18,748 nt of DNA from a virus (Duplodnaviria > Heunggongvirae > Uroviricota > Caudoviricetes): the IMG/VR virus record IMGVR_UViG_2703718816_000016, positions 1 to 18,748 of that record. One strand, written 5' to 3'. How positions within the stretch are numbered: position 1 is the first letter of the stretch; the number at the start of each line of letters is the position of its first letter. Made by a program: the position numbers. Below are positions 3,001-6,000 of this stretch, piece by piece.

Positions 3001-6000
3001 TTGCGCATTGATGCCGAGATACGCTTCCAGTCTTCGCGGTCGTTGTCGATAACTTCATTTTTTGCCCAGCGATGGATGCTGCCGTCAATGTTTCCGGCAT
3101 CCACATCACCAGGCCAGAGAGCGTAGGCCAGTTCGTCATCCAGTGTTTTCCATGTCTGCTTGTATTCGCGATGAATGGCAGCAATGACCGGGTTGATTTT
3201 TCCTGTTGAATTTTCAGTGTGCTGTTGATTGGTTCTGGCGCGGGCGAGATCAACAACAGACGTGTATTTTCCGGTTTCCTTGCGTTCACCTTCGCGACGT
3301 TTTTTCCAGATGCGCATCTCTGCCTGAATTTCGGGCCATTTGGCACCAGGCTTACATTTATGCTTAACCCACCCGATGGCATGCAGCTTAAGCTCCGGAT
3401 ACATGGCGTTAACTTCTGGCATTTTCATCAACGCTTCAACGATATGTCCGTCGAATGTTGCCATGTCTTCCTGCAACAATTCCTGTGCGCTAATAACCAT
3501 ATCAACGGTGATGTTTTCACATGTGTCGAACTTAACCATGACAGCGTTCTGTACTTCAGGGGCCAGCTTGTCAAAAGTGACGTTCATCGGATCGGATTCA
3601 GTCTCAACCGGGACAAAGGAAGCAGACTCCTCATCCCAGCGGTTTTCCTGCATATATTCAGCATCCCAGGAATCGAGGGCAGGGCGGGGTATGCCAGGTT
3701 TATCCTCGCAGACAATAAATTTATAAGCGCAGTCCTGAGCAGCCGGATAATGTTCCAGGAACTGCCAGTGAAATTTTGCTCGAGCACGGCGTTCGTCGCC
3801 AGCTTCAATGGCTGTGGCTACAGCCACAGCGCCTTCTTCCCTTGTTGCCAGTTCGTCAGGAATAGCGGCGCAAATAAAGACTTTACTCATTTTGTTTTAA
3901 CCTCATGACAGATTTAAGGATGAACAAATCCCTGCCATTGCTGGCATATAAGAATGAAATCGGATGTTTATTACGGAACTGTTTTAAAGACCTGCCGGGA
4001 TTTCGTTATTATCCTGGTGAATAACTTTATCGACCGGGTAACAGTTACCGGGAATTTTCTGTTCGGTTGCTGCAGTCACACACTCCTGCATTGTCCTGTG
4101 CACACTGACTGCAATATCAACTGGCTCTCCGGAAACAAGAAAAACTGTCAGAACAAGCACAAATGCTGAATTCATTGTGCACATCCTTTTGGCATCAGAC
4201 GTAAACGAGCCAGCATTGAAACAATGCATATTTTATTTAATAGCTCCCGTTCTTGTTTTCTCTTGTTAATGGCATCTTCAGTAAATACTGGGTTACTGAT
4301 AGTGACACCAATTTCAAAACAACCTTCAGACGTATTAACGTTTGGTAATAACGTTTTCATTATCGCGTCCTCAACAATGAATTTTGTGATGCAGTGCCTG
4401 GTGCCTCCAGGTGACGTTAACCAGTTAACAATTAACGCCGGATACAGAGAATCCACCCATAACACTGTTTTTGGTTTTAACTGTTCCGCGTGCGCTCAGC
4501 CGCATTCACCACATCACAAAATTCACTTTAAAAAGGGCGGCAGAGCAGTCACGGAGTAAAACTGATACCGCCAAACGTCACCAGAAAATTGATAACAGAG
4601 GGCGTTGCAGCGGGGTTGTCACTTAAGCGTATGGTCAACCTGACAACCCGGTGTCCTCAACGGGGAAGGAATAACCCCGCCATACTTACCGCCGCGCCAT
4701 TTCGCGGGTTGCCACAACCGGAAGCGCACGGTCGACGAAAATTTAACGACAGGCTATCTATGAACCAGCTACCTCGCCGTGCGCTTTCGCGTTATGGTCT
4801 GACTTTTCAGGGAAATATCCTTTCAGTAAACTGTCAGTGCCGGATGCTCACCCGTGTCCGGCGCACGCACTCCACCTCACCCGTGGAGAACTCCTTAATT
4901 ACTAACCTTAGCTTTGTTGATTAGCTACTAACGCGGGTATGTAATCATTCTGGCAATGCTTAATGCCGCTGCTTTTTCCAGATTGGTGATATCCTGCTCC
5001 AGAGCGGACAGATTTTCAGCCTGCTTAGCCCTGGTTTCATTGGCCCATTTCAAATCCTGCGCTGCATTAATTTTCTGGCGCATCCACTCATAAAGTTCAT
5101 CATCGGTATAGTCTGGCGCGATGATGACGGGTTCTCGTTTCTGCATACTGATTCCTCGCGGTGCTGTTTCGCTTATCAGCCGTTAGATTTTGCCGAACTG
5201 GAAAGCGCCTGTTTAAATTCGTTGAAGCTGAGAGCTTCTTCGCCGTCGGCAAGACCTTCGAAGTATTCTTCGTAAGCCTTTTCCATGATTGTGTCGAAAT
5301 CCATATCACTCACCTGGGTTTCTTTCCAGCCAGCGACGGGCACCATTTTCGGTTTTAAACGTTTTGCTTTTGGTATACGTCATCGCGGTGAACGTACCGT
5401 CCTGGTTGGGGAACACGCCACATACCAGAGATTCGCTGTTGCCAAGATCGATAGTATCCATGCTGACCTCATTTCCCCTTAACGCCGGGGTAGCGGAACA
5501 AAAACCTGCTGCATAGTTATTAAAGTTGAAGCCTGCCGTCATGTTCTTACGCCTCGGGCTGGCTACTTAACCCCTGACCACTGCCGGGTAACTCGAAGTA
5601 TTGCCATGCGTTCTGTGGGGCGGGGTGGGTATAAAACGAAGTTTAGAAAAACAAACATAATGAGTCAATGTTTTTTTATCTAAACATTTTGGGCAGGCAG
5701 CTGTTAAGCCATCAATATGATGGCGTACAGTTAATTAAGGAGGGTTAAATATCTTGTTGAATTTTAAAGCAGACACCTAAAATGCAGGATAGATCATCTA
5801 GCATGATTGATGGGTAGCGTTGATTCGATGGTACTAAAAGAATATCAGGACCTTCTATTTCCAGTTTTCGAATGATAGGAATAGAGGTTCCTTTGGGTAA
5901 TGCTAGGACAATATTACCATGTTGTGCGGTACGATCTGGGTCGACAAAAACAGTTGAACCATTAGGAATTGATACACTTCCGCCAGCGGCAGACATACTA

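Follow-up and report, generated by a model that had tools for sequence, protein, structure and literature searches.

A lambdoid prophage's dicBF operon with a CI-type repressor module

The dicBF operon carried by the cryptic Qin prophage of Escherichia coli K-12 (strain MG1655; b1571–b1576) comprises the small genes ydfA, ydfB and ydfC, the small RNA (sRNA) gene dicF and the genes dicB and ydfD. An operon with the same six elements is described here from a stretch of 18,748 nt of tailed-phage DNA (positions 1–18,748 of the IMG/VR virus record IMGVR_UViG_2703718816_000016; the whole stretch is referred to below as the window). The K-12 operon is among the longest-studied E. coli prophage loci. 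Its product DicB brings MinC to the septum and inhibits formation of the FtsZ ring in a MinC-dependent manner (PMC6832061; PMC10448788), and DicB together with MinC also stops the ManYZ-dependent entry of lambda-like phages (PMC6832061). K-12 DicF is released from its precursor by RNase III, which yields a species of 190 nt, and by RNase E, which yields the 53-nt form (PMC10448788); it represses the ftsZ, manX, xylR and pykA mRNAs (PMC5069750; PMC10448788). YdfD causes lysis by binding and inhibiting IspG (PMC8835842). A preliminary description of the window, made from its sequence, took the small partners of DicB and DicF to be uncharacterized. That is correct for YdfA, YdfB and YdfC, for which no function is known (PMC5069750; also given as uncharacterized in PMC11430063), and incorrect for the published lysis protein YdfD (PMC8835842). 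The dicBp promoter of the operon has been viewed as the analogue of the lambda PL promoter (PMC10448788), and earlier literature had noted that many strains carry the operon and that its prophage context is not always alike, several such contexts being on record (PMC5069750).

Identity and organization of the operon

Inspection of the minus strand between positions 3700 and 5800, with a listing of all open reading frames (ORFs) of at least 25 aa, finds all six elements in the order ydfA-ydfB-ydfC-dicF-dicB-ydfD (Table 1). Both order and spacing are shared with the K-12 operon. Pairwise alignment with the K-12 proteins gives identities of 62/62 residues for DicB (100%), 71/72 for YdfC (99%), 61/63 for YdfD (97%), 40/42 for YdfB (95%) and 48/51 for YdfA (94%). 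At the DNA level the homology sets in ∼28 nt upstream of the ATG of ydfA (∼5499) and extends as far as the beginning of the exonuclease gene; over this region a base-by-base alignment finds the window and Qin to be nearly identical, the DicF leader and the dicB 5' untranslated region (UTR) being nearly or fully so. DicB matches Pfam family PF05358 over positions 1–62 of 62 (136.8 bits, cut-off 27) and NCBIfam family NF049927, 'cell division inhibition protein DicB' (132.8 bits, cut-off 100), and YdfD matches PF07358 (87.1 bits, cut-off 25). The near-identity to K-12, together with Pfam and NCBIfam scores far above their cut-offs, identifies the locus as the dicBF operon proper and not as a distant 'dicBF-type' relative, and the evidence lies far beyond what a chance match would produce.

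The locus is accordingly read as the dicBF operon in lambdoid-prophage form and as the counterpart of the lambda PL (early-left) operon, with a probability of about 0.88. The preliminary description had proposed an intact early-left operon of dicBF type, in which five tightly packed minus-strand genes and an sRNA follow the order given above. Alignment with K-12 dicB, dicF and ydfA–ydfD, which is near-identical or identical throughout, the Rfam, Pfam and NCBIfam matches, the RefSeq annotation of near-identical DNA and the genomic position all agree with this proposal, and the coordinates that it gave for the five ORFs match exactly. The operon is real and intact; it is also already known and routinely annotated.

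Table 1. Features of the dicBF operon, its control region and the downstream genes in the window.
Feature	Position	Strand	Description
Tyrosine integrase (int)	1–1119	−	PHROG 7244
Excisionase (xis)	1088–1357	−	PHROG 629
Exonuclease	1419–3890	−	823 aa; Rv2179c-like 3'-5' exoribonuclease domain, residues 642–813 (Pfam)
ydfD	3984–4175	−	63 aa, lysis protein (DUF1482); 4-nt overlap with dicB stop
dicB	4172–4360	−	62 aa, cell-division inhibitor
dicF–dicB spacer (dicB 5' UTR)	4361–4534	−	174 nt; 100% identical to K-12
DicF sRNA	4535–4587, with T-run 4530–4534	−	53 nt; Rfam RF00039
DicF leader, untranslated	4588–4927	−	340 nt; 3 mismatches to K-12
ydfC	4928–5146	−	72 aa; PHROG 1744, E = 3e-39
ydfB	5176–5304	−	42 aa; ATG one base past ydfA stop
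ydfA	5306–5461	−	51 aa, DUF1391; Pfam PF07151, 95.6 bits (gathering cut-off 27.3)
PL-like sigma-70 promoter candidate	5640–5668	−	TTGACT, 17-nt spacer, TAAACT; consensus scan
Operator-like palindromes ATGTTT-N8-AAACAT	5639–5658, 5668–5687, 6382–6401	.	Pattern search; inverted repeat I2 (for 5639–5687)
CI-type prophage repressor	5745–6383	−	212 aa; Pfam HTH_3 (N-terminal) and Peptidase_S24 (C-terminal, LexA-like)
cro-like gene	6475–6705	divergent from repressor	

No annotated gene lies in the 567 nt between ydfC and dicB, and it is here that DicF is found. Rfam family RF00039 matches 4535–4586(−) over model positions 1–52 of 52 (76.7 bits against a gathering threshold of 48, E = 1e-15), and the 53-nt dicF of K-12 (b1574) aligns to 4535–4587 with identity at 53 of 53 positions, the published target-pairing regions included. 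The 3' end is formed by a G+C-rich hairpin, whose stem reads GGCGG.../...GCCGCC on the structure line of the Rfam match, and by the TTTTT that comes after it at 4530–4534; a simple terminator scan of the region did not have this intrinsic terminator among its listed sites. The interval of 4530–4587 first assigned to DicF contains the sRNA, with its five additional nucleotides being the T-run of the terminator. DicF and ydfB had both been described as invisible elements; both are present; they were hidden solely by the ORF-length cut-off and are standard annotated K-12 genes (b1574 and b1572, respectively).

The untranslated leader upstream of DicF (4588–4927) has a minimum free energy (MFE) z-score of −2.6. 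If processing is as in K-12, which homology suggests, the 190-nt RNase III species should have its 5' end at ∼4720–4724. This position falls within a long helix predicted to pair 4712–4735 with 4771–4797, on the 3' side of the pairing, and is thereby consistent with an RNase III site.

The upstream part of the operon admits another explanation, namely that ydfA, ydfB and ydfC are accidental ORFs and that the upstream 0.5 kb is merely the 5' leader of the DicF precursor. YdfB and YdfC match no Pfam or NCBIfam family, and the literature knows no function for any of the three proteins (PMC5069750). They are also frequently missing: in a survey of 77 DicB loci with sufficient flanking DNA, the full ydfABC set is present in just 23, ydfC is missing from 21, ydfA occurs alone in 15 and dicB-ydfD is found without dicF in 11, so that dicF-dicB-ydfD forms the stable core and the ydfABC part is mosaic. 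Each of the three ORFs nevertheless has a PHROG family of its own (E-values from 4e-27 to 3e-39), YdfB and YdfC belonging to separate families and YdfB matching PHROG 2061 with an E-value of 4e-27. The tight spacing between the ydfA stop and the ydfB start is conserved, as are Shine–Dalgarno-like sequences, and the frame and start of ydfB are those of RefSeq ydfB in a 99.6%-identical genome and of K-12 b1572.

The variation among alleles points in the same direction. Ratios of nonsynonymous to synonymous polymorphism (pN/pS) and the distribution of variable sites over codon positions were computed on distinct alleles from the fetched DicB loci. The pN/pS values are 0.15 for ydfA (17 alleles), 0.14 for ydfB (10 alleles), 0.36 for ydfC, 0.24 for dicB and 0.36 for ydfD; all five small ORFs are under purifying selection in their annotated frames (pN/pS 0.14–0.36). 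Variable sites at the first, second and third codon positions number 4/5/11 in ydfA and 0/3/9 in ydfB, an excess at the third position that contrasts with the 2/8/5 of an ORF on the opposite strand of the DicF leader (4760–4924, +). The accidental origin of ydfABC is therefore highly improbable, and the three are regarded as genuine members of the operon.

Two other candidate ORFs were rejected. The ORF at 4760–4924(+), which is given in some relatives as a 54-aa RefSeq hypothetical protein (WP_001302137.1), shows no coding signature in its variable sites and for this reason is probably spurious. A mechanical ORF of 56 aa (5176–5346) was also considered as the true ydfB. It overlaps ydfA and its start differs from the annotated one; it was rejected because the start of the 42-aa form sits one base past the ydfA stop and is the one used in K-12 and RefSeq.

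Control region and proposed expression

The structural genes of the window are assigned to the Qin type, whereas the regulatory module is of another type. In K-12 Qin the operon has the dicBp promoter, DicA, DicC and the antirepressor Rem; the window instead has a repressor of CI/S24 type with its own operator-like sites (Table 1). A tblastn search identified no homologue of K-12 Rem or DicC within the window. DicA shows only weak similarity, 38% identity to the 212-aa repressor over 63 residues, which is restricted to the helix–turn–helix (HTH) domain. The repressor itself is covered over residues 2–211 by PHROG 4, 'transcriptional repressor', and aligns to residues 25–224 of lambda CI with the catalytic serine (SDSM) and lysine (IRKL) retained. 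An immunity module exchanged in this way, with the junction falling within the 5' leader, is nothing out of the ordinary in the mosaicism of lambdoid phages.

On the minus strand the repressor gene is followed by the promoter-like site, the dicBF genes, exo, xis and int, with the cro-like gene divergent, which is the layout of a PL operon. The hexamers of the PL-like site (TTGACT and TAAACT) recur in a divergent PR-like site at 6417–6446(+). The first of the three palindromes overlaps the −10 hexamer of the PL-like site, the second has one base in common with the −35 hexamer and the third lies beside the start of the repressor gene. The pattern search gave four matches in total against 1.14 expected; those with no more than one mismatch are these three palindromes, all flanking the repressor gene. 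Palindromes and promoter-like sites on either side of the repressor form the arrangement expected for OL/PL and OR. Given this arrangement of repressor, promoter and palindromes, the published view of dicBp as a PL analogue fits the window, with a different immunity specificity.

Several observations weigh against an early-left operon under a working lambda-like switch. Sigma-70-like sites are no more frequent in the region than expected by chance (four, compared with 5.2 in shuffled sequences), and it is consequently the location of the site and the operator palindromes on which the promoter call relies. At the position of the Ala111-Gly112 cleavage site of lambda CI the repressor has Ala-Ala, which makes SOS inducibility uncertain. 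In the RefSeq annotation of 99.6%-identical relatives, the ORF of the 212-aa repressor is split into two fragments and cro is flagged as frameshifted, so that the switch may not be fully functional. Lastly, the ORF listing contains no N-type antiterminator between the repressor and ydfA (5462–5744); K-12 Qin likewise lacks an N-type first gene. A permissive Rfam scan of this 283-nt gap found no known RNA element. The sole ORF in the gap is an N-terminal extension of ydfA, which is not conserved and was discarded.

A scheme for expression can be proposed on this basis. In the lysogen the operon would probably be silenced by the CI-type repressor of the prophage acting through the palindromes that overlap the PL-like promoter. 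Derepression would give a leftward polycistronic transcript running over ydfA, ydfB, ydfC and the 340-nt structured leader, which RNase III and then RNase E would trim to the 190-nt and 53-nt forms of DicF, the 3' end being supplied by the intrinsic terminator of DicF; read-through would allow expression of dicB, ydfD, exo, xis and int. Identity or near-identity of sequence is the ground for transferring the activities known from K-12 to the products of the window. Together with Hfq, DicF would pair with the ftsZ, manX, xylR and pykA mRNAs. DicB would direct MinC to the septum, leading to dismantling of FtsZ rings, and through MinC would block ManYZ-dependent entry of phage DNA. YdfD would inhibit IspG and bring about lysis. 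The net result of derepression may be a block of host division combined with exclusion of competing phages, analogous to the action of lambda Kil.

Kil is described as a small inhibitor of host division that is encoded in the lambda PL operon and acts on FtsZ assembly (PMC3961180). Like dicBF, it represents a division inhibitor expressed from a leftward early operon on derepression; this is an analogy and not a sequence relationship. The routes also differ, with Kil acting via ZipA, DicB via MinC and DicF via the ftsZ mRNA.

The spacer between dicF and dicB

The 174-nt spacer that forms the dicB 5' UTR has a strong predicted fold (MFE −69.9 kcal/mol, z-score −4.95). In a permissive Rfam scan it matches the whole STnc100 model (RF02076) with 34.4 bits and an E-value of 4e-5, which is below the gathering threshold of 47, and the dicB 5' UTR is for this reason not assigned to STnc100. 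A genuine STnc100 copy is present elsewhere in the window at 17496–17693(+) (134.6 bits). A 2026 preprint links STnc100 to PasD and makes no mention of dicF or dicB.

These data raise the possibility that the spacer constitutes a functional RNA in its own right, akin to STnc100/PasD and serving as a cis-regulator of dicB translation or as a second sRNA. The match, although below threshold, is significant and spans the whole model, and the dicB 5' UTR shares the central hairpin of STnc100. A 21-nt hairpin motif, TCACCnGGAGGCACCnGGCAC, is confined to two places, 4394–4414 in the spacer and 17606–17626 in the genuine STnc100 element. Between them the stem shows a compensatory change from U-A to G-C, and no match was obtained in 200 shuffles. 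An alignment of 31 variants shows in addition that the last 84 nt of the spacer (4361–4444) accompany dicB even where dicF is absent. On the other hand, the terminator stem of STnc100 has no counterpart in the dicB 5' UTR, which is part of an mRNA leader. The two conserved hairpins are nearly invariant among the 31 variants, so that covariation gives the fold no support. The long outer helix that closes the structure is lost in loci without dicF and contains an A-C mismatch in some alleles, and recent common descent may be all that lies behind the conservation. A separate RNA of this kind is considered unlikely.

A more specific proposal, in which the spacer is a diverged STnc100/PasD relative that has become a cis-acting leader (for example controlling dicB processing or translation) in a unit wired to the CI/S24 repressor, is held to be improbable to a similar degree. 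If it were true, the classic dicBF operon would hold a second, undescribed RNA module, and DicF and DicB might be made at prophage induction. The resemblance between the spacer and STnc100 is best treated as a lead and not as a finding.

Where a DicB locus has no dicF, sharing of the dicB 5' UTR is limited to its final 84 nt, starting from TATCCGG (∼4444). This boundary and the one ∼28 nt before ydfA are mosaic junctions. In one locus (L020:3821–4021) a K-12-type dicBp is joined directly to the dicB UTR, with ydfABC-dicF absent.

Distribution, prophage state and neighbouring genes

A megablast search with positions 3900–5800 of the window against 5426 complete E. coli genomes found matches to the operon in 4768 genomes, with at least 80% of the query covered in 2269 and a median of two places per genome. 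RefSeq features at the matches carry the names ydfA, ydfB, ydfC, dicB and ydfD. A prophage of strain S1-CAM-01-A, which adjoins potC and contains the five genes, including ydfB, aligns without gaps to positions 1–9655 of the window at 99.6% identity. When one genome per species was considered, DicB hits were restricted to E. coli, Shigella flexneri, E. ruysiae, E. albertii and one contig binned as Veillonella. This last contig (L007, JAGZPX010000007.1; 22.9 kb), from a Veillonella parvula metagenome-assembled genome, carries dicF-dicB-ydfD with a DicB that is 95% identical, and is very probably a misbinned Escherichia prophage contig.

The operon is also present in deposited phage records, namely Tritos (OV696610; DicF and DicB annotated by name), mEp460_ev081 (LR597641), PhiR42_1 (PV340562) and several vB_Eco phages, while PPompW and Stx2a phages contain parts of it only. 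In Tritos, mEp460_ev081 and PhiR42_1 it occupies the early-left arm of a lambdoid genome, as in the window, and the matches cover 57–91% of the 1.9-kb query with 95.5–98.4% identity. The phage matches start at query position 171 or 302, indicating that the promoter and immunity region of the window are not shared. mEp460_ev081 has been described as a functional phage with dicB, dicF, dicAC and rem (PMC10448788), and it keeps control of the DicA/Rem type, unlike the window.

Downstream of ydfD, the exonuclease, xis and int genes are uninterrupted, xis and int marking the distal end of the leftward early region. The preliminary description had listed a full-length exonuclease, xis and int at this place, and the lengths of these ORFs are borne out by the RefSeq genes of close relatives, in which a product named 'exonuclease' has an equal length. 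In K-12 the corresponding exonuclease, xis and int genes are pseudogenes interrupted by IS2, and the K-12 ydfE pseudogene is a remnant of the N-terminal third of the exonuclease (31% coverage). The similarity of the 823-aa exonuclease to RecE is weak and covers only part of the model (285 bits; cut-off 1269).

An alternative is that the operon resides, as in Qin, in a decaying and non-inducible prophage, kept there for a benefit to the host such as stress-linked division control or phage exclusion and not as the working early-left operon of a viable phage. The retention of the operon in defective prophages is stressed in the literature (PMC5069750). The preliminary description spoke of an apparently complete prophage, a judgement that goes beyond the window, which ends just past the Q/tRNA region, before the late genes. 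In its closest relatives, strain ES5 among them, a frameshift affects the portal gene and the tail region is interrupted by an element of the IS66 family. The near-identical prophages of the relatives L001 and L003 are integrated beside potC. The frameshifted cro and split repressor of the RefSeq annotation of 99.6%-identical DNA fit decay as well. Within the window, however, no interruption affects int, xis, the exonuclease gene, the repressor ORF, Q or the replication genes. The operon also occurs in Tritos, mEp460_ev081, PhiR42_1 and induced vB_Eco phages; mEp460_ev081, for one, is a temperate phage that has been described as functional (PMC10448788). A decaying prophage is a tenable explanation, if the less probable one; it concerns the state of the prophage and is compatible with the identification of the operon as dicBF.

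The operon is found in most sequenced strains, and the significance of its presence here goes little beyond correct annotation. The window does provide a clean example of the operon in what is presumably its ancestral setting, where exo-xis-int are intact and the immunity module is of the CI type. A lysogen of this kind could show the roles of DicF, DicB, YdfD, YdfA, YdfB and YdfC during real induction, as opposed to over-expression in K-12.

The remainder of the window beyond cro contains ydaT-like, O-like and DnaC-like replication genes, hok/sok, a DUF968 gene, Q, a DNA methylase gene, three tRNA genes and STnc100. The hok/sok type I toxin–antitoxin locus lies at 12602–12927(+), with an Rfam sok match of 116.4 bits and a Hok peptide that is 98% identical to K-12 HokD. 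The segment at 14787–17693(+) carries the Q antiterminator, an N6/N4 DNA methylase, the three tRNAs (anticodons CAT, TCG and TCT) and STnc100. Its layout is reminiscent of what Stx phages carry upstream of stx, although the window contains no stx gene. In relatives, a DUF6645 gene comes next.

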